Positions 826 through 19,268 of a DNA stretch of 24,013 nt are shown piece by piece. The stretch spans positions 1,672 through 25,684 of the forward strand of contig CAZDKR010000001.1 in assembly GCA_964506375.1 (NCBI GenBank). Direction: 5' to 3'. The position numbers were made by a program, and so were the translations under genes. How positions within the stretch are numbered: position 1 is the first letter of the stretch; each line of letters opens with the position of its first letter. The DNA comes from an uncultured Gammaproteobacteria bacterium (lineage in GTDB: Bacteria > Patescibacteriota > Patescibacteriia > UBA2196). Below the pieces are notes generated by a model. That model did no database searches. It was not told the origin of the DNA and was given only the letters and a program-made list of their open reading frames with translations.

Positions 826-922
826 TTCTACGGATAAAAATGCACGGTCGTTCATTTTCATCCGTAAGTATTTAAAATGTTTCTACGGATACAGACGTAC
901 GATCGCGCGTTTTCATCCGTAG
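826..922. repeat. Two tandem hairpin elements, 55-bp period
   Basis: TTCTACGGAT at 826-835 and 881-890. Each is followed after 24 nt by ATCCGTA (860-866, 915-921). Loops are centred on CGGTCG (845-850) and CGATCG (900-905). Confidence 0.85.
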
Positions 923-991
923 CTAGAGAATAGAATGTTTTTATAATTTCTAACCCTTTTTGATTTTTGGCTAACCTTAGCCATTTTTTCC

Positions 992-1021
992 TTGAATAAT
1001 TAACATTTCATGTGATATATA
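992..1021 (+). promoter_or_regulatory. Possible sigma70 promoter
   Basis: TTGAAT (992-997), 18-nt spacer, TGn-TATATA (1016-1021). Confidence 0.35.
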
Positions 1022-1098
1022 TAAAGATGGTGACATTTTAACTTAGCCAAAAAGTATTCTTTATTAGAGCAAAGTCTACAATTTATGGCTAATATTAG

Positions 1099-1296
1099 AA
1101 GAAAAATCTTAATAATAAAGTTTATCTTAATAGAATTTTAACTAATTTTAAAACAGAAGTTGATTTTGGGCAGGTTATTTTTGAGAACAGCTTTGGAATA
1201 GGAATTACCAACTGATTGGGTTTTGAGATCGGTGCAAGATATGAAATTCTGAATTCCAGACCAAGAAAAAGAATTTTCTATGGGTTTACAATTTGA
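1099..1296 (+). pseudogene. Possible decayed gene fragment, unidentified
   Basis: One frame reads KKNLNNKVYLNRILTNFKTEVDFGQVIFENSFGIGITN*LGFEIGARYEILNSRPRKRIFYGFTI*, with a single internal TGA at 1213-1215 and no start codon. Confidence 0.3.
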
Positions 1297-1307
1297 TTTT
1301 CTAATTT

Positions 1308-1345
1308 AGGGAGTAGTAGGGTTATGAGATCACTACTCCCTTTTC
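1308..1345 (+). terminator. Probable intrinsic terminator upstream of clpB
   Basis: 10-bp stem AGGGAGTAGT (1308-1317)/ACTACTCCCT (1332-1341), 14-nt loop, followed by a T-run. Confidence 0.6.
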
Positions 1346-1347
1346 AT

Positions 1348-1376
1348 TTGATTTTTTATCTTTATTTTGCTACTCT
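1348..1376 (+). promoter_or_regulatory. Possible sigma70 promoter for clpB
   Basis: TTGATT (1348-1353), 17 nt, TGn-TACTCT (1371-1376). Confidence 0.4.
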
Positions 1377-1443
1377 AAATAATACAGGTTTGCTTTTATC
1401 ACACTATCCCCTAATAATTTAAAAGTTTTGCTTATATAACATT

Positions 1444-4035
1444 ATGATTAATTTTCAAGAGTTGACCCAAAAATCAGCTGAGAGTTTGCAAAGCGCATTT
1501 GAGTTAGCGCAGGAAAAGAAAAATTCAGAGGTGACTGCCCATCACCTGCTTTTGGCCTTGCTTTTACAAAGCGAAACCGCAGTCACCCCCTTGTTTCAAA
1601 GAGTGGGAGTTTCTCCTGATGTATTAAAAAAAGAAATAGAGGATGAAATAAATAAAATGCCGACTTTAGCCTCTGTTTCTTTAGAACAGATTCGCCTTTC
1701 AGCAGAAGTTGATCAGATTTTTAATCAAGCAAAAAAAGAAGCCCACGGATTGGGTGACGAATATATCAGCACAGAGCATCTGTTGCTTGCTGTTTTAAAC
1801 ACCCAGAACAGCGCGCGGGAGCTTTTAGAAAGAGCCGGGGTTGACTATAAAAATGTTTTAGATAATATAGATAAAGTTCGCGGCAATATGAAAGTCACAG
1901 ATCAAAACCCAGAATCTAAATATAAAGTTTTGGAAAAATATGGCCAAAATTTTACTAAACTTGCTCGGGAAGGGAAGTTGGATCCGGTTATTGGCCGAGA
2001 TGAAGAAATTAGACGGGTTATGCAGATACTTTCCAGGCGCACTAAAAATAATCCAGTTTTAATTGGCGAACCGGGCGTGGGTAAAACCGCTATTGTGGAA
2101 GGCTTGGCTCAGCGCATCGTGGCTGGAGACGTGCCAGAAACTTTAAAGAATAAAGAAATTGTAGCCATTGAAATGAGTTCGCTTTTAGCCGGAGCCAAAT
2201 TTAGAGGAGAGTTTGAAGAGCGTTTAAAAGCAGTGCTCAAAGAAGTTGAGGCAGCCGAAGGAAAAATTATTTTATTTATTGACGAACTGCACACAGTAGT
2301 CGGGGCCGGGGCAGCCGAGGGCGCAATTGACGCGGCTAATATGTTTAAGCCTTTGCTTGCCCGAGGCAAACTCCACATGATTGGCGCCACTACTTTAAAT
2401 GAATATCGTGAACACATTGAAAAAGATGCGGCTTTAGAGAGAAGGTTCCAGCCAGTTTATATTGACGAGCCGTCAGTTGAGGATACAATTTCCATTTTGC
2501 GGGGCTTAAAAGAGAAATACGAAATTCACCATGGAGTAAAGATCACTGACGAAGCCTTAGTAGTGGCCGCGCGGCTTTCTGCCCGTTATATCACAGACCG
2601 TTTTTTGCCGGATAAGGCAGTTGATTTAATTGATGAAGCTACTTCTTCATTGAAGATGGAAATTGAAAGTTTGCCTTACGCGCTTGATCAAATTAAAAGA
2701 AAGATTAGGCAAAAAGAAATAGAGCGCGAGGCGTTAAAGAAAGATAAAAGCCAGGGCGCCAAGGAGCGCTTGGGCGAAGTGGAGAAAGAAATCGCCAATT
2801 TAAAGGAGCAGGAAAAATCTTTAGCCCAGGAATGGGAATATGAAAAGAAGTTAATTGAAAAAAGCAGGGAATATTCCAGTCAAATTGACGAGCTAAAAGT
2901 TCAGGAAGAACAGGCCGAACGCCAAGGAGAGTTGGAGAAAGTGGCCGAGATTAGATATGGCAAAATCCCGGAATTAGAAAAAAAGATTAAAGAAATTCAG
3001 GATAAGTTAAATAAAATACCTTCAGAAATTCGTCTTTTGCGGGAAGAAGTAAAAGCCGAAGACGTGGCTCGGGTGTTGGCCAAATGGACAGGCATTCCAG
3101 TGACTAGGTTATTAGAGAGTGAAAGCCAGAAATTAGCTCGTTTGGAATCAGAGCTAAAAAAGCGCGTAGTTGGCCAGGATGAGGCTGTTGAGGCGGTGGC
3201 TCGAGCTATTCGCCGCGCCAGATCAGGACTGGCTGCGCCTACAAGACCTTTAGGATCCTTTATATTTTTAGGGCCTACTGGGGTAGGCAAAACCGAGTTA
3301 GCCAAAGCTTTAGCCGCGGCTTTGTTTGATGACGAAAATGCAATGATTCGCATTGATATGAGCGAATATATGGAAGCTCATTCAGTAGCGCGTTTAATTG
3401 GAGCGCCGCCGGGTTATGTGGGTTTTGAAAAAGGCGGACAGTTAACTGAAAGGGTTAGGCGTCGGCCTTATTCAATAATTTTATTTGATGAGATTGAAAA
3501 AGCCCATCCTGAAGTCTTTAATGTCTTTTTGCAGATTTTGGATGAAGGCCACCTAACTGATGGCCAAGGCAGAAGAGTTAATTTTAAAAATACAGTTATT
3601 ATTATGACTTCTAATTTGGGGAGCGAAATTATTTACCAAGAAACAGGCAAGGACGAAGAAAAGATGCGAGACAAGGTTATGCAAATAGTTCAAAGGAGTT
3701 TTCGGCCAGAATTTTTGAATCGGATTGATAAAATTATTATTTTCCACCGTCTTGGACCTGAGCAAATGAAAACTATAGTTGATATTCAGCTTAATCAACT
3801 TAATCAGATATTGGCTGAAAAAAATATTAGTTTAGAAGTTGTGCCTGAAGTTAAGAAGTGGTTGGCGCAAGTTGGTTATGAGCCGACTTTTGGTGCTCGG
3901 CCCTTAAAGCGAGTGATTGAAGAGAAAATAATGGATGAATTGGCTCTCCAAATCATTGAAGGCAAGGTTAAAGAAGGGGATAAATTAATTGTGAAATTAA
4001 AAGGCAAAGATAAAATTGTTTTTGAAAGGAAATAA
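1444..4035 (+). CDS. clpB: ATP-dependent disaggregase ClpB
   Basis: 863 aa. N-domain, NBD1 ([15 protein letters not shown]), coiled-coil M domain (LKMEIES...AEIRYG), NBD2 ([20 protein letters not shown]). Confidence 0.97.
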
Positions 4036-4124
4036 AAGCGGAATTTTTGTGTTTGGTTTGCCTTGCCATTATGTTGTCTTGCCGGTCGCGCGTTTGGTAT
4101 TCTGTTTGCTGCTATTACAACGGG

Positions 4125-4164
4125 ATGGCGATCCTGATCCCAAGCGCTCGGGACAGGATGACAT
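4125..4164. repeat. REP-like palindromic element upstream of alaS
   Basis: ATCCTG-A-TCCC-AAGCGCTC-GGGA-CAGGAT hairpin centred on AGCGCT. Core 4138-4153 recurs at 11903-11918 and 20192-20207. Confidence 0.75.
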
Positions 4165-4173
4165 AAGAGAATT

Positions 4174-5994
4174 ATGACTTCAAAACAGCTTCGCAGAAAA
4201 TATATTGAATTTTTTAAAAGAAAGGGACATGTTGAAATTCCTTCTGCTTCTTTGATTCCTGAAAACGACCCTTCAGTTTTGTTTACAACTGCCGGTATGC
4301 ATCCGTTAGTCCCCTTTTTAATGGGCGAAAAACATCCGGCAGGCAGGCGCTTGGTCAATTCTCAAAAATGTGTGCGCACTGATGATATTGACGAAGTTGG
4401 GGACAAGTGCCACCACACTTTTTTTGAAATGTTGGGACACTGGTCGCTGGGTGATCCTGCTTCGCCTGATGGCGTTGGCCAAGACGGGTATTTTAAAAAA
4501 GAAGCAATAGAGATGAGTTATGAATTTTTAACCCAAGAATTAGGTTTGGATCCAAATAGATTGGCGTTTTCAGTTTTTAAGGGCGACGAAGATGCTCCAA
4601 GGGACGAGGAGGCTGCTAGTGTCTGGAAAAGCTTGGGCGTGCCAGAGAGCAGGATTGCTTATTTGGATAAAAAGGAAAATTGGTGGGAGCCTGCTGGCGA
4701 AAGCGGGCCTTGCGGCCCAGACACAGAAATGTTCTACTGGGCAGATAACCAAAGCCCGGCACCAGAAAAGTTTGATCCTAAGGATGAACGGTGGGTTGAG
4801 ATTGGCAATGACGTTTTAATGCAATATGAAAAAGCTGGCCAAGGCAAATATAGGCCGGCTAAACAGAAAAATATTGATAACGGAACCGGCTTGGAAAGAC
4901 TGCTGTCAGTAATGAACAATCTAGATGACGATTATCAAACAGATTTGTTTTTGCCAATTATAAACAAAATTGAAGAATTGTCCAGCAAGAAATATGACGC
5001 CTCTAAAGGGGCTGAGAATGTTAGGTCAATGAGAATAATAGCTGATCATCTGCGTGCCGCCACTTTTATAATGGGAGATGATTTAGGCATTGCGCCTTCC
5101 AACGTGGATCAAGGTTATGTGGTTCGCAAATTGATTCGTCGGGCTGTCCGCCATGGACGGATGATTGGCATTCAAGAGAATTTTACTCATAAAATTGGGG
5201 AAGTTGTGATTAATTTAATGAAAGATGTTTATCCAGAATTAGAAAGGAATAAGAAATTTGTCTTGGATAATTTGCAGATGGAGGAGGAGAAATTTACTCG
5301 GACACTCCAGCAAGGTTTAAGAAGATTTGGAAAGGTAATAAAGAAATATAGTAATAAAGTGATAAAGGGAGAGGACGCATTTAACCTATTCCAAACATAT
5401 GGATTTCCTTTAGAATTAACAAAAGAGTTGGCAAAAGAAAAAGGTCTGGAAGTTGATGAAAAGGGGTTTGAGCAAGAATTTAAAAAACATCAAGAACTTT
5501 CAAGAACTGCTGCGGCAGGCAGGTTTAAAGGCGGTTTAGCAGGTCAGTCAAAACAAGTAATAAAGTATCATACTGCCACTCATTTACTGCTTGCGGCATT
5601 AAGAAAAGTTTTGGGCGATCATGTAAGCCAAAAGGGCTCAAATATTACTGAGGAGCGATTGCGGTTTGATTTTTCCCATCCTGAGAAATTAACAGAGGAG
5701 CAAAAACAAGAAGTTGAAAAGTTGGTTAATGAGTGGATTGAAAAGGATTTGCCTGTCAGCTGGCAGGAGATGCCTTTAAATGAAGCCAAAGATTTAGGCG
5801 CAACCGGAGTTTTTGAAAACAAATATGGGGATAAAGTTAAAGTTTATACAATCGGTTCAGGCGATTATGTGGTCAGTCGTGAAATTTGCGGCGGGCCGCA
5901 TGTTGACAGGACTGGAGTTTTGGGTAATTTTAAAATTAAGAAAGAAGAGTCAAGTTCAGCAGGAGTTCGGCGAATTAAAGCTGTCTTGGAATAA
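4174..5994 (+). CDS. alaS: Alanine--tRNA ligase, short form lacking the C-Ala domain
   Basis: DPSVLFTTAGMHPL, SQKCVRT, TFFEMLG, IDNGTGLER; editing domain HTATHLL ... EICGGPH; ends GVRRIKAVLE. Confidence 0.97.
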   Translation: MTSKQLRRKYIEFFKRKGHVEIPSASLIPENDPSVLFTTAGMHPLVPFLMGEKHPAGRRLVNSQKCVRTDDIDEVGDKCHHTFFEMLGHWSLGDPASPDGVGQDGYFKKEAIEMSYEFLTQELGLDPNRLAFSVFKGDEDAPRDEEAASVWKSLGVPESRIAYLDKKENWWEPAGESGPCGPDTEMFYWADNQSPAPEKFDPKDERWVEIGNDVLMQYEKAGQGKYRPAKQKNIDNGTGLERLLSVMNNLDDDYQTDLFLPIINKIEELSSKKYDASKGAENVRSMRIIADHLRAATFIMGDDLGIAPSNVDQGYVVRKLIRRAVRHGRMIGIQENFTHKIGEVVINLMKDVYPELERNKKFVLDNLQMEEEKFTRTLQQGLRRFGKVIKKYSNKVIKGEDAFNLFQTYGFPLELTKELAKEKGLEVDEKGFEQEFKKHQELSRTAAAGRFKGGLAGQSKQVIKYHTATHLLLAALRKVLGDHVSQKGSNITEERLRFDFSHPEKLTEEQKQEVEKLVNEWIEKDLPVSWQEMPLNEAKDLGATGVFENKYGDKVKVYTIGSGDYVVSREICGGPHVDRTGVLGNFKIKKEESSSAGVRRIKAVLE

Positions 5995-6100
5995 AATACA
6001 ATAACCAAAAGATAAGAGATAAGGAGTAAGCAATTTCCAATAACCAAATAAAATTTCTTCTATTTTGCTATTGATTCTTGTATTTTGGTTATTAAGAACT

Positions 6101-7351
6101 ATGTCTTCTGACTTTAACATCAAAACCATAAAACCCAATGATGGGCTTAAGTACAAGACCCAGTTTAAAAAGAAACCGCGATTTAGAATTCGGGGGGCGG
6201 TGTTTTTTATTTTAATTATCTTTTTTCTGGTTTTATTCACTTATGTTTTGCCAAGTGTGACTGTAGTTGTTGTTCCAGAGACAAGAAAAATTGAAAAGGA
6301 ATTTGAAATTCAGTTGACAAGCGATGAATCCAAGGTTGATTTAAATAGAAATATTTTTCCAGCCCGCATTATTGAAGCGAGCGAGAAGGGCGAAGGAAGT
6401 TTTGAGGCGACTGGCGAGAAAGACATTGGGGACAAGGCAAGCGGTCAGGCAGTATTTTATAACCACACTGGCCGGTCTCAGCCTTTAACCACCCAAATAG
6501 ATTTAATTAATGATCAGGGCATAGCTTTTGCTGTCAAAGAGAATATAACTATTCCTCCTGCCAGGGTTGACGAAGATGGCAATATTGTTCCCGGCGAGAT
6601 TGTGGCTGAGATTGAAGCCAAAGAACCGGGCGAAAAGGGAAACGCGGGTCCGGGCAGGATTAACATTTCAGCCTTAGACATTGAAAGGCAAGAAAAGATT
6701 TATGGTGAAATTAGCCAGGGTTTAAGTGGCGGCAATTCTAAGATTGTGGTAGTTGTTTCCCAGGAAGATTTAGATAATGCCAAGGATGAATTGATAAGAG
6801 AGTTAGAACCAAAAGTTAAGGAAAAGTTAAAAAAGAAAGCCGGGGATGATATGTCAGTAATTGATAAACTGATAAATTTTGACGTTTCAGAAATTTCAAA
6901 ATCAATGGATGTGGATGCTGAAGTGAAAAATTTTGATATGAGTTTAAATTTAAAAGCTAAAGCCTTGGTTTATAACAATAAGGATCTAAGTTCATTTTTA
7001 AAAGACCAGATTTTAAAAGAATTACCAGCGGGGCAAACAATTGCAGAATCAGAATTTGGTCCAGAATCCCAAGCGCCTGGCAAGGGGTTGGAAGTTGAAG
7101 TTAGGAATTTTGATATCAATTTAGGCATGGCTGATTTAAAAATCAAAGCAGTTTTTCCTGTTTCAGAAAAGATTGATTTAGTCAAAATTAAGAGAAATAT
7201 TTTAGGCAAAAGGGAAAAGGAAGCCAGGAGATATATTTTATCATTGCCCAATGTCAAAGACGTGAAATTTATTTTTTCCTTGAGCTTAACTGATAAAATT
7301 CCGAAGTTTGAGAATAAGGTGAGGGTGAAATTGGGAGAAGTGATGAAATAA
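6101..7351 (+). CDS. Membrane-anchored protein with baseplate-J-like domain (CPR-type conserved hypothetical)
   Basis: ATG 6101 preferred over TTG 6065. Single TM segment (AVFFILIIFFLVLFTYVLPSVTVVVVP), ATGEKDIGDKASGQAVFYN, and AKEPGEKGN...I motifs recalled from this family. Confidence 0.6.
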   Translation: MSSDFNIKTIKPNDGLKYKTQFKKKPRFRIRGAVFFILIIFFLVLFTYVLPSVTVVVVPETRKIEKEFEIQLTSDESKVDLNRNIFPARIIEASEKGEGSFEATGEKDIGDKASGQAVFYNHTGRSQPLTTQIDLINDQGIAFAVKENITIPPARVDEDGNIVPGEIVAEIEAKEPGEKGNAGPGRINISALDIERQEKIYGEISQGLSGGNSKIVVVVSQEDLDNAKDELIRELEPKVKEKLKKKAGDDMSVIDKLINFDVSEISKSMDVDAEVKNFDMSLNLKAKALVYNNKDLSSFLKDQILKELPAGQTIAESEFGPESQAPGKGLEVEVRNFDINLGMADLKIKAVFPVSEKIDLVKIKRNILGKREKEARRYILSLPNVKDVKFIFSLSLTDKIPKFENKVRVKLGEVMK

Positions 7352-7505
7352 GAGATAATTTTTAACTTTTTTCACATTATGTTAATATGGCTGCGCGGTT
7401 ATTACAACATGCAGGTAAGACTAAGAAATTAAAAGTTCAAAGATAAAATAAATTTTTGTTTGCCCTTGAGTATTTAGGGTCATTGTGGCCAAAAGAAAGG
7501 AAAAC

Positions 7506-7535
7506 TTGACAATATTTTTAATTTTATTTTATAAT
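7506..7535 (+). promoter_or_regulatory. Consensus sigma70 promoter for the infA-rpsI block
   Basis: TTGACA (7506-7511), 18 nt, TATAAT (7530-7535), with an A-rich upstream tract. Confidence 0.8.
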
Positions 7536-7656
7536 AACAGCATAAGCAGAAATAACAAAAATGCTAAAAATAAAAAGAATTTAATTAAGCCAAAGAATAA
7601 TAAATTCTGGATAATTTTTTATACCCAGAATTTTATAAATATCTTTTAATATTTTA

Positions 7657-8010
7657 ATGTCAGAGGAACAGAAAAATAACCAAAATTTGGATAATAGCCG
7701 AAATGGCAGGGATAAGGTTGATAAAAGCGGTACTGATTTTGCGCAAAAGGATTTAAAAAAGATTGACCAAAAGGATGATTTTAGCAATTTTAAAGTTAAC
7801 AGAAAGGGCTTTATTGAAGTTGACGGCGAGGTAATAGAGACATTGCCAAGCATTACTTTTCGCGTTAGATTAGAGAATGACTATGAGATTTTAGCCCGTC
7901 TTTCTGGCAGGATGAGAATGAACAGGATAATGTTATTGCCAGGAGATAAAGTCAAAGTTGAAATAAGTCCATATGATTTGACCAAAGGGAGGATTACTTA
8001 TAGGTATTAA
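7657..8010 (+). CDS. infA: Translation initiation factor IF-1 with ~45-aa N-terminal extension
   Basis: [12 protein letters not shown]...FRVRLEN...[38 protein letters not shown]. Confidence 0.95.
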
Positions 8011-8215
8011 TAATCGCGGAACAGGAGTGAAGATAGCGTGTTTTTTCGTCATATTAGAATTTTCTAGCTTTGAACTGACTCTGGCTTTATGTCAAGACAA
8101 TGTTATGCCCGTGTTTGTATAGAAGATTTATCTAGTGAAAACACACATAAAAAACACAAAAAAGAGCGTAAAAGATAACACAAATTAGGTGCATAAAGCA
8201 CTTGTTTATAAAGAT

Positions 8216-8329
8216 ATGAAAGTTAAAGCCTCGGTTAAAAAAATTTGTAAAGATTGCAAAGTAGTTCGTCGTAAAAAACGGGTGGTTGTGGTATGCAAGA
8301 ATCCAAGGCATAAACAACGGCAAGGATAA
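8216..8329 (+). CDS. rpmJ: 50S ribosomal protein L36 (zinc-binding type); not in the ORF track
   Basis: [37 protein letters not shown], 37 aa. Confidence 0.97.
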
Positions 8330-8335
8330 TTATTT

Positions 8336-8725
8336 ATGGCAAGAATAGCTGGTGTCAATTTACCCAATGATAAAAGAATAGAAATAGGTCTAACCTATAT
8401 TTTTGGCATTGGCAGGAGCTTGTCAAATAAAATTTTAAAAGAAGTTGAAATTAATCCTGACACAAGGGTTAAAGATTTGTCTGAAGAACAGGTAAATAAA
8501 CTAAGACAAAAGATTGAGAAGGAATATAAAGTGGAAGGTGATTTGAAAAGAGAGATTATTGGCAATATAAAGAGGTTAAAAGAGATTGGCTCTTATCGTG
8601 GCTCTCGACATGCCAAGAACCTGCCTGTTAGGGGGCAACGGACAAGAAGGAATACCCGAACTGTAAGGGGCAATGTTAGGAGAACAATAGGCTCTGGTAG
8701 AAAACCAGCGGCGCAAAAAACATAA
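8336..8725 (+). CDS. rpsM: 30S ribosomal protein S13
   Basis: [10 protein letters not shown]...GLTYIFGIG...YRGSRH...[11 protein letters not shown]. Confidence 0.97.
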
Positions 8726-11495: not shown

Positions 11496-11846
11496 ATGCG
11501 TCACCAGAAAACTAAAAAAACATTAGGAAGGAAAACAGGGTCAAGAAAGGCATTGATTAAAAATTTGGCCAGTTCTTTGATTTTGTATGAAAAAATAAAG
11601 ACAACAGAAGCTAAGGCCAAGATGATTAAACCATTGGTGGAGAAAATGGTGACGAGAGCTAAAAGCGACACTTTGCATAATCGGCGTGAGATAATGAAAA
11701 AAATACCTGCCAAAAACGTAGTTAGAAAACTATTTGAAGTCTTGGGTCCAAAGTATAAAAAAAGAAAAGGCGGATACCTCCGAATTGTTAGGTTGGGAGA
11801 GAGAAAAGGGGATGGGGCTAAGATGGTGGTGATAGAGTTTGTGTGA
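11496..11846 (+). CDS. rplQ: 50S ribosomal protein L17
   Basis: MRHQK...LGRK...EKIKTTEAKAK...RKGGYLRIVRLGERKGDGA. Confidence 0.97.
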   Translation: MRHQKTKKTLGRKTGSRKALIKNLASSLILYEKIKTTEAKAKMIKPLVEKMVTRAKSDTLHNRREIMKKIPAKNVVRKLFEVLGPKYKKRKGGYLRIVRLGERKGDGAKMVVIEFV

Positions 11847-11930
11847 TGTTTATAGACTTTATCCCTTACACTTATTATTTAATTTTAATTTCAAATTTTC
11901 AATCCTGAGCGCTTGGGAAAAACAATATTT

Positions 11931-12278
11931 ATGCAACGTAAAGTACATACAATTGATGCGAGCGGAAAAGTATTGGGCAGGCTTGCAACCCAGGTGGCTT
12001 TGTTATTGCGTGGTAAAAATAAACCAACCTTTAGCCCCCATCTTGATGAAGGAGATGAAGTGGTTATTAAAAATGTTGACAAAATGAAATTTACTGGAAA
12101 GAAGCTGGGGCAAAAAGTCTACAAGCATCACACTGGCTATGTGGGGCATTTAAAGATCATTAGTATGAGCGATGCTTACAAAAAGAACCCACAACAGGTT
12201 TTTAAAAGGGCGGTTTATAATATGTTGCCAAAAAACAAGTTGCGTAGTAAAATGATGAAAAGATTAAAGTTTGAGTGA
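11931..12278 (+). CDS. rplM: 50S ribosomal protein L13 (short C-terminus)
   Basis: ATG 11931. IDASGKVLGRLATQVALLLRGKNKP.F.PH.D.GD.V. Confidence 0.95.
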   Translation: MQRKVHTIDASGKVLGRLATQVALLLRGKNKPTFSPHLDEGDEVVIKNVDKMKFTGKKLGQKVYKHHTGYVGHLKIISMSDAYKKNPQQVFKRAVYNMLPKNKLRSKMMKRLKFE

Positions 12279-12280
12279 AC

Positions 12281-12413
12281 ATGCGAATGTGAATATAATA
12301 CAATAAAACTTTATCTATTATATGTGGATGGTTTAAATATTTGGATGGTTTAAAAGCAAAGCGCTTTGCATTTAAACGCATTTAAACCACATTTATCTGA
12401 CCAGTATTCGCAT
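12281..12413. repeat. Nested inverted repeats in the rplM-rpsI spacer
   Basis: ATGCGAAT (12281-12288)/ATTCGCAT (12406-12413). TGGATGGTTTAAA occurs twice, opposed by two ATTTAAAC. Central perfect palindrome GCAAAGCGCTTTGC (12356-12369). Confidence 0.7.
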
Positions 12414-12419
12414 ACAATT

Positions 12420-12920
12420 ATGCCTAAAAAAGACATAAAAAAAGAAGATAAATCTGTAACAAAAACCACAAAAAAGCAAGTGGCCGCTCTTGGAGTTAAA
12501 GAAGAAAAAGAAGAAGAGAGTAAGAAAATAGATGACTTTATTAGGGCTGTCGGTCGTCGTAAAAGCGCGGCAGCTAGAGTGCGCCTTTATCCAAACGGAA
12601 GTGGAAAAATAGAAATTAATGGCAAGGATTATAAACAATATTTTCCGCTTTTTGAGTTAAATAAAAAAATAACCCTGCCGTTAAAGTTAGTGGGCAGGAG
12701 AAATGATTTTAACTTTACAATTAAAGTAGCTGGTGGTGGACCTGTTGGGCAAGCTGATGCCTGTTCTCATGGAATTACCAGGGCATTGATTAAATTTAAT
12801 GAAGATTATAAAAAAACTCTGCGCGCTGCTGGTTTTGTGACCCGCGACCCAAGAGTCAAAGAAAGAAAAAAATATGGTTTGAAAAAAGCCAGACGCGCCC
12901 CGCAGTGGCAGAAGAGGTAA
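12420..12920 (+). CDS. rpsI: 30S ribosomal protein S9 with N-terminal extension
   Basis: ATG 12420 preferred. AVGRRKSAAARVRL, VAGGGPVGQA, RDPRVKERKKYGLKKARRAPQWQKR. Confidence 0.96.
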   Translation: MPKKDIKKEDKSVTKTTKKQVAALGVKEEKEEESKKIDDFIRAVGRRKSAAARVRLYPNGSGKIEINGKDYKQYFPLFELNKKITLPLKLVGRRNDFNFTIKVAGGGPVGQADACSHGITRALIKFNEDYKKTLRAAGFVTRDPRVKERKKYGLKKARRAPQWQKR

Positions 12921-12971
12921 TTTTTATCGTTTTTGCAATTTTTTCAGTCTAATTTATTTTGGTTTATTATG

Positions 12972-13013
12972 CATTATGTCAATTTATCACGATCGTAGCA
13001 AAATGACATAATG
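12972..13013. repeat. Imperfect 42-bp palindrome centred on CGATCG, downstream of the PaaX-like gene
   Basis: CATTATGTCAATTTATCACGA|TCGTAGCAAAATGACATAATG; 17 of 21 arm positions pair. Confidence 0.9.
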
Positions 13014-13073
13014 ACATAATGAAGTAATGAAGTAATGAAGCAGTGAAGCAATGAAGCAGTGAAGCAATGAAGC
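13002..13073 (+). repeat. Tandem array of nine 8-nt units
   Basis: AATGACAT x2, AATGAAGT x2, then AATGAAGC/AGTGAAGC alternating x5. Confidence 0.95.
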
Positions 13074-13099
13074 TTGGGTGGTTTTGATATTTTAAATTT

Positions 13100-13636
13100 T
13101 TATTTTAACCCAAAAATTTTTTTTAGATTTGTTTCAAAGCTGACATGGTCCGCAATTATATAATTAAACCATTTACTTTCTTTTGCACTTGGAATCAAGG
13201 TATAAATATATTCAATTGCGTCATAAGGGTAAATCCAAACGCTTTTCTGCAAGCGATAAAAGCCGATTTCTTTTAATATTTTTCTTAGATTATCTCTAAA
13301 AACTCTTTTATTTTCAGGTATGTCAAAAATTAGAATACGCCATTTACCGTCCCACTCTTTTTTATTCTTCGCAGCCCTTTCAATAATAATTTTTTTTATA
13401 AGCTCATAACCTTTAGGGGTTAATTTATAAAGGATTTTTTTGTCTATTTCAGTATTTTTTAAATACCCCCTTCTTTTTAAATTGGCCAGCGTGTAATATG
13501 GAATAGGTTTTGTGCCACCAACCAAAGATTTTATATAGTCATAAGGATTTATGGCATAAGTTATTATTTTATTATTTCCATCAATAAAAGCTTCAAGTAA
13601 TTTTTTTGTTTTCTTGTTTAAGTTAAGAGATTTCAT
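13100..13636 (-). CDS. PaaX-like protein (winged helix + Cas2-like ferredoxin-fold domain), not CRISPR-linked here
   Basis: LANLKRRGYL...YKLTPKG (wHTH wing) and WDGKWRILIFDIPE..R..RD.LR..L...GF..LQKSVW. Start at 13636 is preferred because the 13681 ATG lies in the palindrome. Confidence 0.8.
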   Translation of the reverse strand: MKSLNLNKKTKKLLEAFIDGNNKIITYAINPYDYIKSLVGGTKPIPYYTLANLKRRGYLKNTEIDKKILYKLTPKGYELIKKIIIERAAKNKKEWDGKWRILIFDIPENKRVFRDNLRKILKEIGFYRLQKSVWIYPYDAIEYIYTLIPSAKESKWFNYIIADHVSFETNLKKIFGLK

Positions 13637-13648
13637 ATGGTTAGTGTT

Positions 13649-13680
13649 TGTCATTTTGCTACGATCGTAGCAAAATGACA
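13649..13680. repeat. Perfect 32-bp palindrome centred on CGATCG, upstream of the PaaX-like gene
   Basis: TGTCATTTTGCTACGA|TCGTAGCAAAATGACA. Confidence 0.95.
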
Positions 13681-13697
13681 TAATGGAAATTTAGAAT

Positions 13698-15155
13698 TTA
13701 TTTTGAGCTCAGGTGGCTTAGTTCTTCTTTTACCACTTTTCTGTCATCCCAAGGAATTTTTTTGCCGTTTTTAACGCAGATAGCCTGTTCCGCGCCTTTG
13801 CCTGTAATTAGAATCAAGTCATTTTTTTTAGCTAACTTTAGCGCTTTTCTAATGGCTTCGCGTCGGTCTAATATTTTTAAAATTTGGGTTTCTGATTTTT
13901 GATTTGCAGTTTTTGGTCTTTGATTTTTAATTTCTTCAGCCCCAGCTGCTACCTCATCAATAATTTTCATTGGCTCTTCATCATAAGGATCTTCGTTAGT
14001 TACAATAACAATGTCTGCGTTTTTAGCAGCTATTTGGCCTAAAATTGGTCTTCTTGCCTTGTCTCTGCCTCCACCAGCTGAACCAAGAATATGGATAATT
14101 TTATTATGATCAATGCTTTTGACGGCTTCATACAACTTTTCTAATGCCCTGGGTTCAAACGCGTAATCAACAATGATATTTACGCCCAAGTTGTCCTGAG
14201 CGTCCTGAATAAATTCTAATCGGCCTGGCAGTGGTTTCAGGTTTGCTACTGCCATTTTTATTTTTTCCCAATTAACGCCTAAAATTTTAGCAACTGAAAT
14301 TCCGGCTAAGACATTGTAAATATTGTAGTTACCAAGCAAAGGAGTTGTGAATAACGAACCCGCATCTGCCAAAGCTGCGGCGGACAGGTTATGAATTATG
14401 AACTTTATTTTTCCATTTTCATTTTTCACGTCACCTGCTTTTATTGTTTCAAAACCATTTCCATAATTCTTGGTTTCTAATTCATAATTTACCCCAAACC
14501 CAATTTTTTTATCAGCTTTAAAATTCAGAAAATAACCAGCATATTCATCATCTAAATTAACAATAATAGTCTTTTTAATAAATTTTCCTAATTTTTTAAT
14601 TTTTTGAACTTGTCTCAATTTTTTAACATCTTTATGTTTAGAGTGAGACAGGTATTTAAAAAGTTTTCCCTTGGCTTTTTTATAATTTTCAAATCCGCCG
14701 TGGGCTTCTATGTGTTCAGGATACAAATTAGTAAAAACTAAAATATCATAATTGATACCTATATGCCTATATTGTTCAATACCTTGGGAAGAAGTTTCAA
14801 TAATGGCAATTTCGCAATTTTTTTTGACCATTTGTTTTAATAATTTTTGCGTTTGAAAACGGCCAAGCATGGTCATTTTTTTATCATTTAACCATTCATA
14901 ATTGCCAATTTTAAAAAGGGTAGTAGTGGTCATGCCGACTTTAAAGCCAGCTTGTTCCAAAATTTGGGCGATAAAATAACAAGTTGAAGATTTGCCAGCA
15001 GTGCCAGTTATACCAATAATTATCATCTTGTTTGACGGATAGCCATAAATAAAAGCGCTTATCTTAGCCAAAAGCCAATGGTAAAACGGCTGTAAAAGTT
15101 TGAACAGTTTTTTAGGGATGAGCTTTTTAATTATGTTTAATAACTGATCTAACAT
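13698..15155 (-). CDS. murE: Mur ligase, most like MurE (UDP-N-acetylmuramyl-tripeptide synthetase)
   Basis: IGITGTAGKSST, IETSSQG, FTNLYPEHIEAHG, N.DD, PGRLE, IVDYA, GGGRDKARRP..G, VTNEDPYDE, GKGAE, WDDR. Confidence 0.88.
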   Translation of the reverse strand: MLDQLLNIIKKLIPKKLFKLLQPFYHWLLAKISAFIYGYPSNKMIIIGITGTAGKSSTCYFIAQILEQAGFKVGMTTTTLFKIGNYEWLNDKKMTMLGRFQTQKLLKQMVKKNCEIAIIETSSQGIEQYRHIGINYDILVFTNLYPEHIEAHGGFENYKKAKGKLFKYLSHSKHKDVKKLRQVQKIKKLGKFIKKTIIVNLDDEYAGYFLNFKADKKIGFGVNYELETKNYGNGFETIKAGDVKNENGKIKFIIHNLSAAALADAGSLFTTPLLGNYNIYNVLAGISVAKILGVNWEKIKMAVANLKPLPGRLEFIQDAQDNLGVNIIVDYAFEPRALEKLYEAVKSIDHNKIIHILGSAGGGRDKARRPILGQIAAKNADIVIVTNEDPYDEEPMKIIDEVAAGAEEIKNQRPKTANQKSETQILKILDRREAIRKALKLAKKNDLILITGKGAEQAICVKNGKKIPWDDRKVVKEELSHLSSK

Positions 15156-15263
15156 TTTTTTAACCTAGAACCCAGCTTTGTTTATTGTAATTTGCAATAA
15201 TTTATATTAGTTGCAAAATAGATTTAACAGATTTGTTTTTATGTAGATAAATGCGCAGGGCGT

Positions 15264-16322
15264 CTATTCTGCATGTGCGGCAGAAACGAGTGAGTCTTTG
15301 TTTAATTGTTTATAAAAAATTACTCCCAGAGGGAAATATAACCAGAAGGAAAAGAAGCGATAAACCAGTATGACAGAAAGGGCTAATTCCAAAGGATGTC
15401 CTAAGGAATTAAAAATTAAAACCATTGAACCTTCAAAAGCGCCTAAGCCGCCTGGAATAAATGAAACCAGTCCAAAGAGCCTGCCAAAGACAAAAGCCGC
15501 TATCCCCAAGCCGATTGACACCTTTGAACCAAAAGCTAAAAAGATTAAAAAAATTGTCAGGGCGTCTGAGAGAAACTTTGTGAGCTGGAGTAGGGCGGGT
15601 AATAATATTTTTTTCTTATTTTTTTTCAACCAATCAAAATCTTGATAAAAGTCATTAAGTAATTCACGGACTCTCTCTTCCTGACGAATCCCGTCTTCAA
15701 ACAAATCAATTTTTTCAGCCACCCAGGTTACTCTTTTTCTAGCCCTATTTTTACTGCCTAGGAAAAAGTAGATAGCAAAAGCAATTAATAATAATATGAG
15801 AATGAAACCGCCTATTGCGTTTTTTTGCATTTGTCCGATGTGGCCTAATTTGAAAAAAAGATAAATCAAACTTAGGATTAACAGGCAGGCAAAAGAGAGG
15901 TAATAACAGGTAGTTTCAATAATAATTGACATTAAGGCCCTCCCTTCTTTGACGTTATGTTTTTTTAAAATTTTTAAAAAATAAAGATTGCCCGCTATGC
16001 CCAAAGAAGGAATAATATAATTTAGAAAAATAATAGTGATGCTTGATTTGATTAATTTTAAAAGCGGGAATTTGGGGAAGTTTAAAATTTTAAATGTTGT
16101 TTGATAAACACTTCCTTGGAGAAGGAAGTTCAAAAGCTGGGAGCCGAAGGCTAGGGCTAGCCAGTGCCACTTGGCTTGCGCAAAAAGCCGTCCAATTTCC
16201 TTGAGCTCTGAAAATTTAAAAAGAATAATAATTACTGTGACAAACAGCAAGAGCGGGAAAAGCAGCTTCTTGAAACTGATTTTAATTGTCTTGCCGTTTG
16301 GAGTGGAAATAGAGAGAGACAT
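15264..16322 (-). CDS. Lysylphosphatidylglycerol synthase TM-domain / flippase-like membrane protein (UPF0104-like)
   Basis: Multiple TM segments; FIPGGLGAFEGSM and LVYRFFSFWL motifs. Confidence 0.8.
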   Translation of the reverse strand: MSLSISTPNGKTIKISFKKLLFPLLLFVTVIIILFKFSELKEIGRLFAQAKWHWLALAFGSQLLNFLLQGSVYQTTFKILNFPKFPLLKLIKSSITIIFLNYIIPSLGIAGNLYFLKILKKHNVKEGRALMSIIIETTCYYLSFACLLILSLIYLFFKLGHIGQMQKNAIGGFILILLLIAFAIYFFLGSKNRARKRVTWVAEKIDLFEDGIRQEERVRELLNDFYQDFDWLKKNKKKILLPALLQLTKFLSDALTIFLIFLAFGSKVSIGLGIAAFVFGRLFGLVSFIPGGLGAFEGSMVLIFNSLGHPLELALSVILVYRFFSFWLYFPLGVIFYKQLNKDSLVSAAHAE

Positions 16323-16407
16323 AAGACTATGAAAGTATTTTAACTTTTTAACACAAAAGCAGTAGTGAAATATTTTGACGTTTTTATGCTCGTCCCTTCG
16401 CCTTTCT

Positions 16408-16481
16408 TGCCCTTAAGCCGATTTGAACGGCTAACCTTCTCCTCCGGAGGGAGACGCTCTATCCATTTGAGCTATAAGGGC
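16408..16481 (-). tRNA. tRNA-Arg (anticodon CCG), CCA not encoded
   Basis: GCCCTTA-TA-GCTC-AAATGGATA-GAGC-G-TCTCC-CTCCGGA-GGAGA-AGGTT-AGCCG-TTCAAAT-CGGCT-TAAGGGC-A; all four stems pair. Confidence 0.95.
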
Positions 16482-16543
16482 AGAAAGGCGAAGGGGCGGG
16501 CCTTGGCCACAGGTTTCAAAGAGGCCTGCACCTTTCCATTGGG

Positions 16544-17752
16544 CTATAGGCGCAAGATTTTTCCAATTCTATACAAGTTATACCATTTTTTATTTAAAAC
16601 ATAATCAAAAGTGCCAAGATAATCAACTTCTTTGCCAGTTTTTTCACTCACAAATCCGCGTTTAAACCTACTTATACCGGCCCAGTCTGAATTTTTGAAT
16701 TTTGGGGCAATGCCCCAGAAATCATACCATTTATACCCTTGCCACTTTGCCCACTTGATAGCTGCCCATTGAATTGCGTGGTTGGGCATCAGGTTTCGGT
16801 GCTCATTGGATGAGGCTCCGTGCAGGTAAGTAGCTGTATTACCAAAGCCAATGATAATAATTGAGGACAGCGGTCGGTTGTTGTATTTAGCAATGAATAA
16901 ATTGGCAGTAACTTGTGGTTTGCAATTTGTAACTTGCGGCTGATTAAAGTAAGTTAGTAATTTTTCATAATAACTTTTATTAAAAATTTTTATTTTATCA
17001 CGCATGGCTGTTTGTTTTAATAAGTCGTAAAAAACATCAATATCCTTAGTTTCTAATTTTTGGAGCGAAGCGGAGACTGCAACTTTATGTTGGGACAAGT
17101 TTTTAATTTCTATTTTAATCCCTTTTCTTTCTGCCAATCTGATATTATACCTTGTCTTTTGGTGCATGGCTTGTAAAATTTCTTCTTCTGGTTTTTCCAA
17201 ATTTAAAATTAGAGTATTCTCCGGCTCTTTTAAGTTGGTTAAAATTTTAGGTTTTGAGAAACTTTTAAAATCTGCGCTTTTGCACTCTTGCGCTCTTGCG
17301 TTTTTGCGCTCATAAGGAGGAGCTATTCTTGCAAATATAATTTTTTCCTGTTTAGCGGTTTCTCTAATTTTATTTATTAGTAATTTGCAGATTTTTTCTA
17401 TTTGAGACTGTGAGCTGGAAATTAGAAATTTTACAACAGGTCCACGGGGACAGTGCAAATAAAATTTGCCGCCTGGTAGTTTCCGTTTTATAAAAAGGGC
17501 TGCGGCAATTAACTCGCATTCATCAATGTTTGCTTCGTTGCCTGGACAAGGAGATTTTGCAGAATTCGCATCAGTGTTAGTGGATGTATTATTGTTGCAA
17601 ACAGCAAAGTACTTGACTTCTTCGTCCAAACATTGTTTCCTAAATTGCCCCCACTCCCAAGATTGCAAAAAAGCAGCTGGCGAGCTGTTTTTAATAATAA
17701 AGCTGTCCCAGGTTGGTCCAAGTTGCTGGTCTGTAATTTCATTAATTTTCAT
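16544..17752 (-). CDS. FemAB/FemX-family peptidoglycan bridge aminoacyltransferase with several insertions
   Basis: FLQSWEWGQF, Y.PRGPV, MHQKTRYNIRLAE, YLHGASS, WYDFWGI, GISRFKRGF. Confidence 0.9.
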   Translation of the reverse strand: MKINEITDQQLGPTWDSFIIKNSSPAAFLQSWEWGQFRKQCLDEEVKYFAVCNNNTSTNTDANSAKSPCPGNEANIDECELIAAALFIKRKLPGGKFYLHCPRGPVVKFLISSSQSQIEKICKLLINKIRETAKQEKIIFARIAPPYERKNARAQECKSADFKSFSKPKILTNLKEPENTLILNLEKPEEEILQAMHQKTRYNIRLAERKGIKIEIKNLSQHKVAVSASLQKLETKDIDVFYDLLKQTAMRDKIKIFNKSYYEKLLTYFNQPQVTNCKPQVTANLFIAKYNNRPLSSIIIIGFGNTATYLHGASSNEHRNLMPNHAIQWAAIKWAKWQGYKWYDFWGIAPKFKNSDWAGISRFKRGFVSEKTGKEVDYLGTFDYVLNKKWYNLYRIGKILRL

Positions 17753-17786
17753 TTTTTGATTTATTATTTACTTTAAATTGCAAAAG

Positions 17787-18365
17787 TTACTTTTTCCCTA
17801 ATAGTTTTAATGCCTGTTTAACAATTTCGTTTTCATTTTCTATTTCGGCTGGAATTTGGCGCAAGACAGTTCTTATTTCCTGGGTTGAATAGCCAAGGTT
17901 TTGCAGGGCGTCAAAAACACCGTCTTCCGCGCTGGACAAATTTATTTTTTCGCCAATTAGCGGCAGGTCTTTTAATTTATTTTTTAATTCCACTACAATT
18001 CTTTCAGCAGTTTTTTGGCCAATACCAGAGACCTTTCTTAGAAGTGACGGGTCATCTCTTAAGATCGCTTTTTTGATTTCTGAAAGTTTAGCGATTGATA
18101 GCACTTGCAGGGCTGATTTTGGACCAACTCCGGAAATTGAAATTAAAAGCTCAAAAAAGTCTTTTTCATTGCTTTTTTCAAAACCATATAATTCCATGGC
18201 GTTTTCTCTGATATAAAGATGGGTGAAGAGTTCGCGCTGCTCGCCCTGTTTTACTTTTTCTAACAAAGGTTCGGTAATGAAAATTTCATAGCCAATGCCG
18301 TTGACATCCAAGATAATGCTTTTGTGACTTTTAGACTTAATTGTACCAGAAAGGTAAGATATCAT
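17787..18365 (-). CDS. ruvA: Holliday junction branch migration protein RuvA
   Basis: MISYLSG...LDVNGIGYEI...LYGF...F..LISISGVGPKSA...GIGQKTAERIVVELK...L..LGYS. Confidence 0.96.
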   Translation of the reverse strand: MISYLSGTIKSKSHKSIILDVNGIGYEIFITEPLLEKVKQGEQRELFTHLYIRENAMELYGFEKSNEKDFFELLISISGVGPKSALQVLSIAKLSEIKKAILRDDPSLLRKVSGIGQKTAERIVVELKNKLKDLPLIGEKINLSSAEDGVFDALQNLGYSTQEIRTVLRQIPAEIENENEIVKQALKLLGKK

Positions 18366-18424
18366 GATTTTATTGTACTAAACATTAGCTAGAAGATCAA
18401 ATGACGTGTATGGTGTGGTAAAAA

Positions 18425-18433
18425 TGGTATAAT
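18425..18433 (+). promoter_or_regulatory. Extended -10 element for truB
   Basis: TGGTATAAT (TGn-TATAAT); no clear -35. Confidence 0.5.
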
Positions 18434-18485
18434 AAAAACAAACTAGGGATTGTGTCCTTAATTATCCCAAAGTAGACGGAAAGTT

Positions 18486-19208
18486 ATGTTAACTCCTAAA
18501 TTTTTATTAATTAACAAGCCGGCTGGCCCAACCTCACATGACATTGTTGATTATTTGCGCAAAATCACAGGTATTAAAAAAATTGGTCATGCTGGAACCT
18601 TGGACCCATTTGCTTCGGGCTTGCTTTTGGTTGCTGTAGGCAGGGAATCTACCAAAGAAATTTCTAAATTCGTTGGATTGGACAAGGAATATTTGGCCAC
18701 TTTAAAACTGGGAGCAGTGAGCGATACTTATGACCGAACAGGAAATGTTAAAAAATTAAAATCCGCCCGCTGGCAAGGCAATTGCAAAAACATTAAAATA
18801 CAAAAGCAAGAAATAGAAAGAGTCTTGAAAAAGTTTATTGGCGAACAAGAGCAGATTCCGCCAATGTTTTCAGCCAAAAAGGTTGGAGGAAAAAAGTTAT
18901 ACGATTTGGCCAGAAAAGGAATTGAAATAAAAAGAAAGCCGCAAAAAATTGTCATTTATAATATAAAGTTAAAAAACCTTGACCAAGTTGGCGGCCGCTT
19001 GTCATTAATTGTTAGTTGTTCTAGCGGTACTTATATCAGAACTTTAGCCCATGATATTGGCCAAGCTCTTGGTTGCGGTGCTTATTTGGAAGAACTGGTT
19101 AGAACTAAAATTGGCGACTTTAAGCTTGAGGACGCTTTAGAGATTGGCAGGTTAACAAGGGATAATTGGAGGGAGTTTTGTATTAATGTGGACAGATGGT
19201 TAAATTAG
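18486..19208 (+). CDS. truB: tRNA pseudouridine(55) synthase
   Basis: NKPAGPTSHDIV, KIGHAGTLDPFASGLL, QIPPMFSAKK, CSSGTYIRTLAHD. Confidence 0.96.
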   Translation: MLTPKFLLINKPAGPTSHDIVDYLRKITGIKKIGHAGTLDPFASGLLLVAVGRESTKEISKFVGLDKEYLATLKLGAVSDTYDRTGNVKKLKSARWQGNCKNIKIQKQEIERVLKKFIGEQEQIPPMFSAKKVGGKKLYDLARKGIEIKRKPQKIVIYNIKLKNLDQVGGRLSLIVSCSSGTYIRTLAHDIGQALGCGAYLEELVRTKIGDFKLEDALEIGRLTRDNWREFCINVDRWLN

Positions 19209-19228
19209 CTTGAGGTAGCTTGAGGGAG

Positions 19229-19268
19229 TTACTTACTATATATTGCGATCGCAATATATAGTAAGTAA
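19229..19268. repeat. Perfect 40-bp palindrome centred on CGATCG
   Basis: TTACTTACTATATATTGCGA|TCGCAATATATAGTAAGTAA. Confidence 0.95.

Follow-up and report, generated by a model that had tools for sequence, protein, structure and literature searches.

The window analysed here, 24,013 bp of a Patescibacterium chromosome with ~36% G+C, contains five intergenic palindromes built around a CGATCG or CGGTCG centre, two of which bracket a small gene for a PaaX-like protein, termed mini-PaaX below. As judged from sequence comparison, these palindromes are probably cognate DNA targets, recognised by small dimeric mini-PaaX proteins whose family extends across the Patescibacteria. Cognate recognition is the best-supported reading because the palindromes are associated with mini-PaaX genes, are conserved in a bipartite manner, covary with the winged-helix domain of the adjacent protein, and resemble the operator of PaaX itself in geometry. 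An initial annotation of this DNA had proposed instead that symmetry and the CGATCG core, rather than the sequence of the arms, are maintained, as would suit a structure-specific site such as a cruciform or a resolution site better than an ordinary operator. In the literature searched, nothing was found on PaaX with Cas2, on PaaX in Patescibacteria, or on palindromic intergenic repeats in the Candidate Phyla Radiation, and the phylum-wide pairing of palindromes with proteins is apparently undescribed there.

Palindromes of the window

CGATCG occurs four times in the window (at 900, 12990, 13662, and 19246) and never in coding sequence, compared with a mean of 1.17 in dinucleotide shuffles, of which 1 in 100 reaches four, and with 1.5 expected under a maximal-order Markov model. 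Each of the four lies at the exact centre of an intergenic palindrome, as the initial annotation had stated, and three of them are within the five strongest palindromes obtained by scanning every even centre of the window (Table 1). The same annotation was also correct in that the variant CGGTCG centres a fifth palindrome and that symmetry reaches 40 bp, the palindrome next to truB being perfect over its whole length. Among the 404 palindromic-hexamer centres in the window, four score 9 or more, three of which are CGATCG (Fisher p = 1.5e-6). All five palindromes are intergenic if ATG 13636, rather than the longest-frame start at 13681, begins the PaaX-like gene; the former is the probable start because the ortholog in a syntenic relative (L001) likewise starts just after its palindrome. 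GATC is near expectation (43 observed, 46 expected), which rules out an effect of Dam or of a restriction site on CGATCG. As a separate matter, CTAG is near expectation too and TCGA is strongly depleted (5 observed against ~27 expected, maximal-order Markov), which suggests that a TaqI-like restriction system has exerted pressure on this lineage.

The five palindromes fall into three types, A, B, and C, by their arms. That the arms differ between loci, a further claim of the initial annotation, applies across loci and types and fails within them: the two A-type copies share arms (ATTATGTCAttttgcTA-CGATCG), and the two C-type sites share the outer half-sites TACGGAT...ATCCGTA. The A-type pair brackets the mini-PaaX gene. 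Read depth over the perfect A copy exceeds that over its flanks ~13-fold in metagenome X1 and 8-fold in metagenome X2, which means that more A copies exist elsewhere; over the B palindrome, the corresponding ratio is ~18-fold in X1 (public metagenome contigs), where several new flanks turn up, and over the C-type sites, the depth is single-copy. Among public runs, the window sequence is found in DNA metagenomes only, and the exact A-type and B-type patterns are absent from the species-representative genome collection. No cognate mini-PaaX gene for the C-type sites was found in the sequence searched. One weak mini-PaaX match beside them (E 0.005, in a search of 30 sequences) is not counted as evidence, and a pseudogene remnant, which would rest on this match, was rejected. 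The idea that the palindromes are promoters was also discarded, since the TTGCTA-17-CATAAT matches in the A-type arms face away from the gene and are not a general feature.

The mini-PaaX family

The protein encoded between the A-type copies consists of an N-terminal winged helix and the central Cas2-like domain of PaaX (Pfam PF20803 PaaX_M, 3.4e-22; CRISPR_Cas2 PF09827, 6.4e-5). Members of the family end after this domain, at ~165–210 aa, with no hit to PaaX_C, the C-terminal ligand domain; no paa genes lie near, the neighbours being housekeeping genes. The AlphaFold2 model (pLDDT 83) finds its best Foldseek match in E. coli PaaX (8A39), which hmmsearch also reaches (1.6e-6), followed by the winged-helix proteins TubR, AspA, RosR, and RTP, and by Cas2. 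Neither an HUH/Y1 domain nor any other known transposase or recombinase domain emerged from the Pfam and fold searches. The two halves of the protein evolve differently: winged-helix halves average 29% identity and Cas2-like halves 52%, and the invariant residues, including W110, W114, F119, D120, R129, S147, and W149, are all in or beside the Cas2-like half. In the profile alignment with 8A39, a Cas2-type motif, FDIPE / QKSVW, is kept in the Patescibacteria proteins and lost in E. coli PaaX.

The window protein has 320 database homologs, and all those with an organism name come from Patescibacteria or Parcubacteria; no family member was found in the viral contigs searched. Many of the records are mislabelled "Cas2" or "PaaX". 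The label "CRISPR-associated Cas2" is shown by the palindromes to be doubtful for these proteins; cas1 is absent from every gene table examined, and the loci do not look like CRISPR arrays, with at most two or three palindrome copies per locus, each bracketing the gene. The gene occupies one constant locus by vertical descent, its context is constant among strains, and it points the same way in the window, in L001, and in every strain examined.

Palindromes at gene ends across Patescibacteria

The association of palindromes with mini-PaaX genes is general. A scan of species-representative genomes confirmed at least 592 relatives (592 of the 600 candidate stretches listed); 80 loci were fetched and, together with the window, give 81 distinct loci. 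Across these, long palindromes occur at 2.42 per kb in gene-end windows and at 0.078 per kb in the other 410 kb, a 31-fold difference, and the enrichment near PaaX-like genes that the initial annotation had proposed to look for is thus very strong. CGATCG is one of several centres that fit a common C-N-R-Y-N-G pattern, present in 68 of the 78 gene-end palindromes (CTATAG 33, CGACCG or CGGTCG 17, CGATCG 11, CGGCCG 4). Upstream centres peak 17 nt before the first aligned protein residue, which places the start codon in the outer arm, and downstream centres lie 10–145 nt past the stop codon. L001 (64% protein identity, 28% G+C) has CGATCG just twice in 20.6 kb, each time as the centre of a related palindrome, and these occupy the same two places on either side of the ortholog.

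Of the 33 loci that have a downstream palindrome, 18 have a convergent gene next to it. The downstream copy is thus part of the gene unit rather than just an operator for the gene that follows, a role that was discarded as a general rule. Centres that are asymmetric have a preferred orientation (upstream, CGACCG 7 and CGGTCG 1; downstream, CGGTCG 7 and CGACCG 2; p = 0.015), meaning that the flanking copies are inverted relative to each other. A Cas2-like domain is not needed for such bracketing: a TrpR-family gene lacking one, present in a genome the same as or near-identical to that of the window (103 aa; L104 296–607; PF01371, 1.7e-13), lies between TACGTA-centred palindromes (L104 229–260 and 637–672) with the common core TTACAATATTACGTAATATTGTAA, of which a third copy is found at L101 3742–3777.

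Two further observations concern these loci. In one contig (L096), two mini-PaaX paralogs (1596–2216 and 6001–6573) flank a response-regulator gene and groES-groEL, and clpB lies downstream of the C-type sites in the window; a connection between chaperone genes and mini-PaaX or its palindromes is possible. Eight independent assemblies (L088–L095) all break at one and the same point, at their 3' ends ~170 bp past the mini-PaaX gene in a GC-rich hairpin, followed by a run of G in those contigs whose ends were read; these breaks are not caused by the palindrome.

Bipartite anatomy and covariation with the protein

The 68 gene-end sites with a C-N-R-Y-N-G centre have a median arm of 20 nt, and 24 of them are perfect. 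In the others, mismatches concentrate at positions 6–10 from the dyad and at the central pair (position 1), and positions 2–5 and 11–20 are nearly always symmetric. This pattern defines a bipartite site, a 10-bp core with two outer half-sites, as expected of a protein site and not of a plain stem. Symmetry is nevertheless conserved in its own right: the two copies of a locus differ by 27 compensated changes, made in both arms and still symmetric, against 23 one-sided ones, and symmetric variants distinguish B-type copies (tatatattg versus taaatattg) as well as orthologous solo copies (L129, L178).

Arm sequence is far from arbitrary. Within one genome, different paralogs have different arms, and arms are common to the copies of one locus and to orthologous loci. 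Outer-arm similarity follows identity of the N-terminal half (rho 0.19, partial 0.21) and not that of the C-terminal half (partial −0.10), figures whose direction is relied on and whose p-values are not, because the pairs are non-independent and share a phylogeny. One arm, ACTTGTTTATAA, is common to five loci, the centres of which still differ (CGACCG, CGATCG, CTATAG, CGGCCG); four of these have other arm-sharing loci as their best N-terminal matches, and the fifth, L024, has L013 as its best match and the arm-sharing loci in places two to five. The proposal that symmetry and core are maintained holds, and its corollary that arm sequence is unimportant does not, since arm similarity follows the adjacent winged-helix domain. 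The choice between a structure-specific site and an ordinary operator likewise has a divided outcome. The near-perfect symmetry and the dispersed copies described below go further than an ordinary operator would, but the bipartite footprint and the PaaX-like geometry are those of a protein site, and a purely structure-specific site, be it a cruciform or a resolution site, explains the data less well than a cognate protein site does.

A plausible mode of action can be outlined, in which binding, repression, and the matching of protein domains to parts of the site are inferred, whereas the link to the gene, the site anatomy, the covariation, and the dispersal are observed. Each protein would combine a variable N-terminal winged helix with a conserved Cas2-like dimerisation domain, and the predicted site of ~40 bp would be composed of three parts: two paralog-specific outer half-sites 11–20 bp from the dyad, probably read by the two winged helices of the dimer; a tolerant spacer at a distance of 6–10 bp; and, centred on the dyad itself, a 10-bp core with C-N-R-Y-N-G that the whole family shares and over which the conserved Cas2-like dimer would sit. 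In this scheme, two sites bracket every gene, both being copies of a gene-specific palindrome of 36–50 bp. The upstream one overlaps the translation start, which makes autorepression probable, as for PaaX at its own promoter Px, and the downstream one would close the gene unit. The A pair (12972–13013 and 13649–13680) would thus serve its own gene, the B site (19229–19268) would belong to a paralog whose gene adjoins parAB at another place in this or a near-identical genome, and the C sites (829–922) to a further paralog. Sites also appear to have been copied as 36–44 bp units into other spacers, mostly just 3' of genes, where bound protein may block or insulate transcription.

Dispersed solo copies

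Copies of the palindromes also occur away from mini-PaaX genes. A metagenome scan with the B-type outer arms returned six contigs, all of one metagenome, one of them (L106) being the truB locus of the window. Another, L105, has a mini-PaaX paralog of 167 aa (4169–4672) beside parA and parB, its gene enclosed by two B-type palindromes, of which one is centred on CGGTCG. The remaining contigs (L101–L104) have solo copies in unrelated spacers: two within convergent gene pairs (glycosyltransferase/IS200 and DsbA/PIN), one where an unannotated open reading frame (ORF) converges on recR, and one just 3' of an ABC permease gene. In all, the B copy of the window has at least five counterparts immediately 3' of genes, none of them with related flanks. 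The repeat comprises precisely the 40–42 bp palindrome; the flanks share nothing and, when compared, show no target duplication. An IS200-like Y1 transposase gene (L104 5870–6445) is ~90 bp from one solo B palindrome, but this element has end hairpins of its own (TACTACGCCCT..AGGGCGTGGTA and ACTATGCCCT..AGGGCATAGT), so mobilisation by it was rejected.

The same holds across the phylum. The 18-mer core TTTACGCTATAGCGTAAA is found at 72 genome loci against ~9 expected by chance, ~64 of them in Patescibacteria. There, the arms reach at least 13 nt in 71 of 73 sites, with a median of 20 nt, and 64 of the 73 are perfect palindromes with arms of 13–28 nt; outside Patescibacteria, 6 of 7 matches extend to only 9–13 nt. 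Among 80 sites with this core, 27 adjoin a mini-PaaX gene and 42 are solo, lying by unrelated genes with no mini-PaaX within 200 bp. The arms of a solo copy are often those of a bracket pair in its own genome (L118/L172, L117/L138, L128/L156). By our own count from the neighbour table, their spacers are convergent in ~12 cases, divergent in 2, and co-directional in 24, and neither hidden divergent mini-PaaX genes nor a common neighbour family was found beside them. A 60-bp perfect palindrome with the 18-mer core of Patescibacteria also stands at the edge of a contig binned as a Clostridia metagenome-assembled genome (L164 83–142), and several contigs with Patescibacteria-type gene content are titled "uncultured Gammaproteobacteria" or "Bdellovibrionales" (L008, L010, L118); mis-binning or mislabelling is likely in these cases.

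Weighing a target site against a mobile element

A number of observations weigh against cognate target sites as the whole explanation. Perfect symmetry over 20–28 nt per arm exceeds what protein contacts normally impose. Quasipalindrome template-switching is a known mutational process that perfects inverted repeats (PMC7202029), and part of the near-perfect symmetry could come from it. Identical 40-mers with unrelated flanks cannot arise in place and require a copying process that target recognition does not supply. Solo copies avoid the divergent, promoter-bearing spacers (12 convergent versus 2 divergent, binomial p = 0.013), unlike a classical regulon, and a downstream palindrome with a convergent neighbour has no gene to regulate. 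Moreover, the two flanking palindromes of L009 have unlike outer arms, about a quarter of the loci lack a palindrome at the threshold used, and the correlations between arms and protein come from the non-independent pairs noted above. The dispersed exact copies are beyond what an ordinary operator explains, and the protein site is an unusual one.

The strongest competitor, possible but on balance unlikely, is a replicator resembling repetitive extragenic palindromes (REPs) and their REP-associated tyrosine transposases (RAYTs), in which the palindromes are short non-autonomous mobile elements and mini-PaaX is the single-copy enzyme that mobilises them. The winged helices would choose the subfamily, and the Cas2-like dimer, which keeps the Cas2 aspartate, would cut in the conserved core. 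Such a replicator would account for the exact 40-bp B copies in at least six spacers with unrelated flanks, for the excess depth of the A and B palindromes over their flanks, for the generality of solo copies across the phylum and their placement 3' of genes away from divergent spacers, for the mutual inversion of the bracketing copies, and for a gene inherited vertically at one locus. REPIN-RAYT systems are similar in their short flanked gene, their pairing by subfamily, and their orientation-marking centre bases (PMC3337134), and the Cas2-type motif kept here and lost in E. coli PaaX may include a catalytic residue. Against this, no HUH/Y1 domain and no domain of another known transposase or recombinase is present in the protein, and the TrpR-family gene of the same genome is bracketed alike without a Cas2-like domain. 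The family is absent from viral contigs, and beyond the lack of target-site duplication, no pair of filled and empty sites was found, the closest relatives having at most 71% TruB identity. Palindrome location showed no polymorphism among the strains examined, and the fragmentary DNA contigs of public runs contain no joints at palindromes. We regard as doubtful the more specific proposal of an unrecognised, vertically inherited replicator, in which a winged-helix/Cas2-like protein recognises, cuts, and copies 40-bp perfect palindromes at the C-N-R-Y-N-G core.

Weaker explanations

RNA-level hairpins, acting as terminators, 3' stabilisers, or processing sites, or sequestering the mini-PaaX start codon, with protein involvement optional, are improbable. 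Solo copies do lie 5–150 nt past stop codons, often between convergent genes; the predicted stability is −20 to −26 kcal/mol; the upstream copy overlaps the start codon; and G:U-compatible mismatches are somewhat commoner on the sense strand (~23 versus 12, own tally). The stems, however, are AT-rich with no U-tract after them, and a terminator scan does not call them; intrinsic (Rho-independent) terminators were rejected. The loop itself is palindromic and the symmetry two-stranded, neither of which RNA needs, and the mismatches sit mid-stem (positions 6–10), the costliest place for a hairpin. Many of them are transversions, the arms track a DNA-binding domain, and the palindromes match no Rfam family.

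A cassette for site-specific inversion or excision, like hix around hin, in which an asymmetric central dinucleotide (AC/GT) sets orientation, would explain why a ~190-aa gene stands between inverted palindromic sites with a centre constrained to R-Y, but it is highly improbable: no recombinase fold is present, most centres are symmetric (AT, GC) and thus give no orientation, gene orientation is constant as described above, and no strand-switch joints occur in the public metagenome contigs covering the window. That CGATCG, a type II restriction site, or the octamer GCGATCGC read at the B-type centre, which is the cyanobacterial HIP1, reflects chance, restriction–modification, or a HIP1-like bias has a negligible probability and is already refuted by the cross-genome association, in addition to which GATC is at its expected frequency, the window has just four CGATCG, none of them coding and concentrated at strong palindromes (by the Fisher test above), CTATAG and CGRYCG centres play the same role in relatives, and the host is a Patescibacterium.

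Genes and other features of the window

On the plus strand, the window begins with the end of a VirD4-like gene, followed by clpB, a short alanyl-tRNA synthetase (AlaRS) gene, infA, rpsM-rpsK-rpsD-rpoA-rplQ, and rplM-rpsI. Next, on the minus strand, come the PaaX-like gene and genes for a Mur ligase, LPG synthase, FemAB, tRNA-Arg, and RuvA, and a last block on the plus strand encodes TruB, a helix-turn-helix protein, TsaB, and SecDF. The window gives no megablast match in either the phage or the plasmid collections, and with mini-PaaX members absent from viral contigs, a phage or plasmid origin was rejected. Coordinates are collected in Table 1, together with short repeats that adjoin the A- and B-type palindromes. 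The third-strongest palindrome of the window, centred on AGCGCT, lies outside the C-N-R-Y-N-G family and may be a regulatory element of the ribosomal operon.

Table 1. Palindromes, repeats, and selected genes of the window; rank is by palindrome strength over all even centres.
Feature	Position	Strand	Sequence or centre	Rank	Remarks
A-type palindrome, upstream copy	13649–13680		TGTCATTTTGCTA-CGATCG-TAGCAAAATGACA	2	Perfect 16/16 arms, one extending to 13685; 13 nt before the probable mini-PaaX start codon, 17 nt past the Mur-ligase stop; orthologous palindrome at the same place in L001, 9999–10036
A-type palindrome, downstream copy	12972–13013		CGATCG	5	Imperfect, 21-nt arms, 81% complementary; 87 nt beyond the mini-PaaX stop, in the spacer facing convergent rpsI; orthologous copy in L001, 10649–10690
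B-type palindrome, solo	19229–19268		TTACTTACTATATATTG-CGATCG-CAATATATAGTAAGTAA	1	Perfect 20/20 arms; begins 20 nt past the truB stop
C-type palindrome	829–866		CGGTCG (845–850)	4	19-nt arms, 3 mismatches including the centre pair; 109 nt past the VirD4-like stop; outer half-sites TACGGAT / ATCCGTA
C-type palindrome	883–922		CGATCG	24	20-nt arms, 75% complementary; in tandem with 829–866, centres 55 bp apart; outer half-sites CTACGGAT / ATCCGTAG kept, inner arm decayed
mini-PaaX gene	13100–13636	−			~180 aa; probable start ATG 13636, longest ORF to 13681
8-bp tandem array	13002–13073		AATGAAGC and variants		~9 units; begins within the right arm of the downstream A palindrome (ATGACATA ATGACATA ATGAAGTA ...); one unit fewer in one related population (run X3)
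10-bp direct repeat	19206–19225		TAGCTTGAGG, twice		Perfect; abuts the left side of the B palindrome
Recurring sequence	19271–19281		GTAAGTAA		Just right of the B palindrome
Other palindrome	12348–12377		AGCGCT	3	Between rplM and rpsI; adjoined by a 17-bp direct repeat (also 12320–12354)
AlaRS ORF	4174–5994	+			Just 606 aa (catalytic core and tRNA_SAD domain)
ORF after AlaRS	6065–7351				428 aa; no Pfam match; same position conserved in L001
tRNA-Arg	16407–16482	−			Sole Rfam match of the window at gathering score
SecD/SecF-like protein	21137–22804	+			PPIC-type rotamase domain inserted near the N-terminus; L001 shows this fusion too

Significance

Hardly any regulator or repeat has been characterised in the tiny genomes of Patescibacteria, and the mini-PaaX family is large, with several paralogs per genome. 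If the palindromes are indeed target sites, the cognate site of each paralog can be read directly from the genome, and the family constitutes a natural library of orthogonal protein–DNA pairs, on which a specificity code of winged helices would be directly testable. The palindromes also account for recurrent contig breaks. Should the Cas2-like core prove catalytic, the Cas2 fold would be tied to palindromic repeats independently of CRISPR, in a second kind of REP-like system in bacteria, and if the replicator reading were true, proteins of the Cas2 fold would include one that processes DNA autonomously at palindromic repeats, directed by sequence and outside CRISPR.

Comparison with known systems

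Among known systems that place a short gene between inverted palindromic sites, the invertases Hin and Gin provide the simplest layout: a gene of ~190 aa lies between inverted, imperfectly palindromic 26-bp sites (hix, gix), the orientation of which is set by the central dinucleotide. The layout and gene size are matched here, but mini-PaaX lacks a serine-recombinase domain, there is no evidence of inversion, and the sites are 40 bp. HIP1 (GCGATCGC) is hyper-abundant in cyanobacteria, largely within genes; although the B-type centre contains this octamer, it is found here only at that intergenic centre, four CGATCG occur in 24 kb, and the host is not a cyanobacterium. The TrpR-family gene of L104 shares the palindrome–gene–palindrome layout and a third copy elsewhere, with another protein fold and another centre (TACGTA).

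REPIN/RAYT systems are closer. In both cases, a short single-copy gene is flanked by its own palindromes with subfamily-specific pairing, centre bases mark orientation, extragenic copies are dispersed, and inheritance is vertical. The combination of a bracketed gene with dispersed palindromes of the same subfamily, by which REP/RAYT systems are recognised, is found in the L105 bracket with its solo copies in L101–L104 and L106, and in other genomes as well. In contrast to a RAYT, mini-PaaX is not an HUH/Y1 (IS200-like) transposase, and the Y1 transposase nearby in L104 has its own hairpins. The palindromes here are longer, perfect, and symmetric through the centre; they number tens and not hundreds, show no REP doublet (REPIN) structure, and belong to a different phylum.

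The closest relative in protein and site is PaaX, repressor of the phenylacetate catabolon in E. coli and Pseudomonas. In E. coli, its 39-bp site reads TGATTC-N27-GAATCA, and PaaX represses its own promoter (PMC9493321). Both proteins have a homologous winged helix and a Cas2-like dimerisation domain; both sites are long dyads of ~39–40 bp with distal half-sites, represented here by the symmetric outer blocks 11–20 bp from the dyad; and the PaaX site at its own promoter has its counterpart in the upstream palindrome at the mini-PaaX gene start. Unlike PaaX, mini-PaaX lacks the C-terminal ligand (phenylacetyl-CoA) domain and nearby paa genes, and retains the FDIPE / QKSVW motif that E. coli PaaX has lost. 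Its palindromes are even-centred, with a conserved C-N-R-Y-N-G core and near-perfect arms, and the system adds a second site past the gene, several paralogs per genome with orthogonal arms, and dispersed exact copies.

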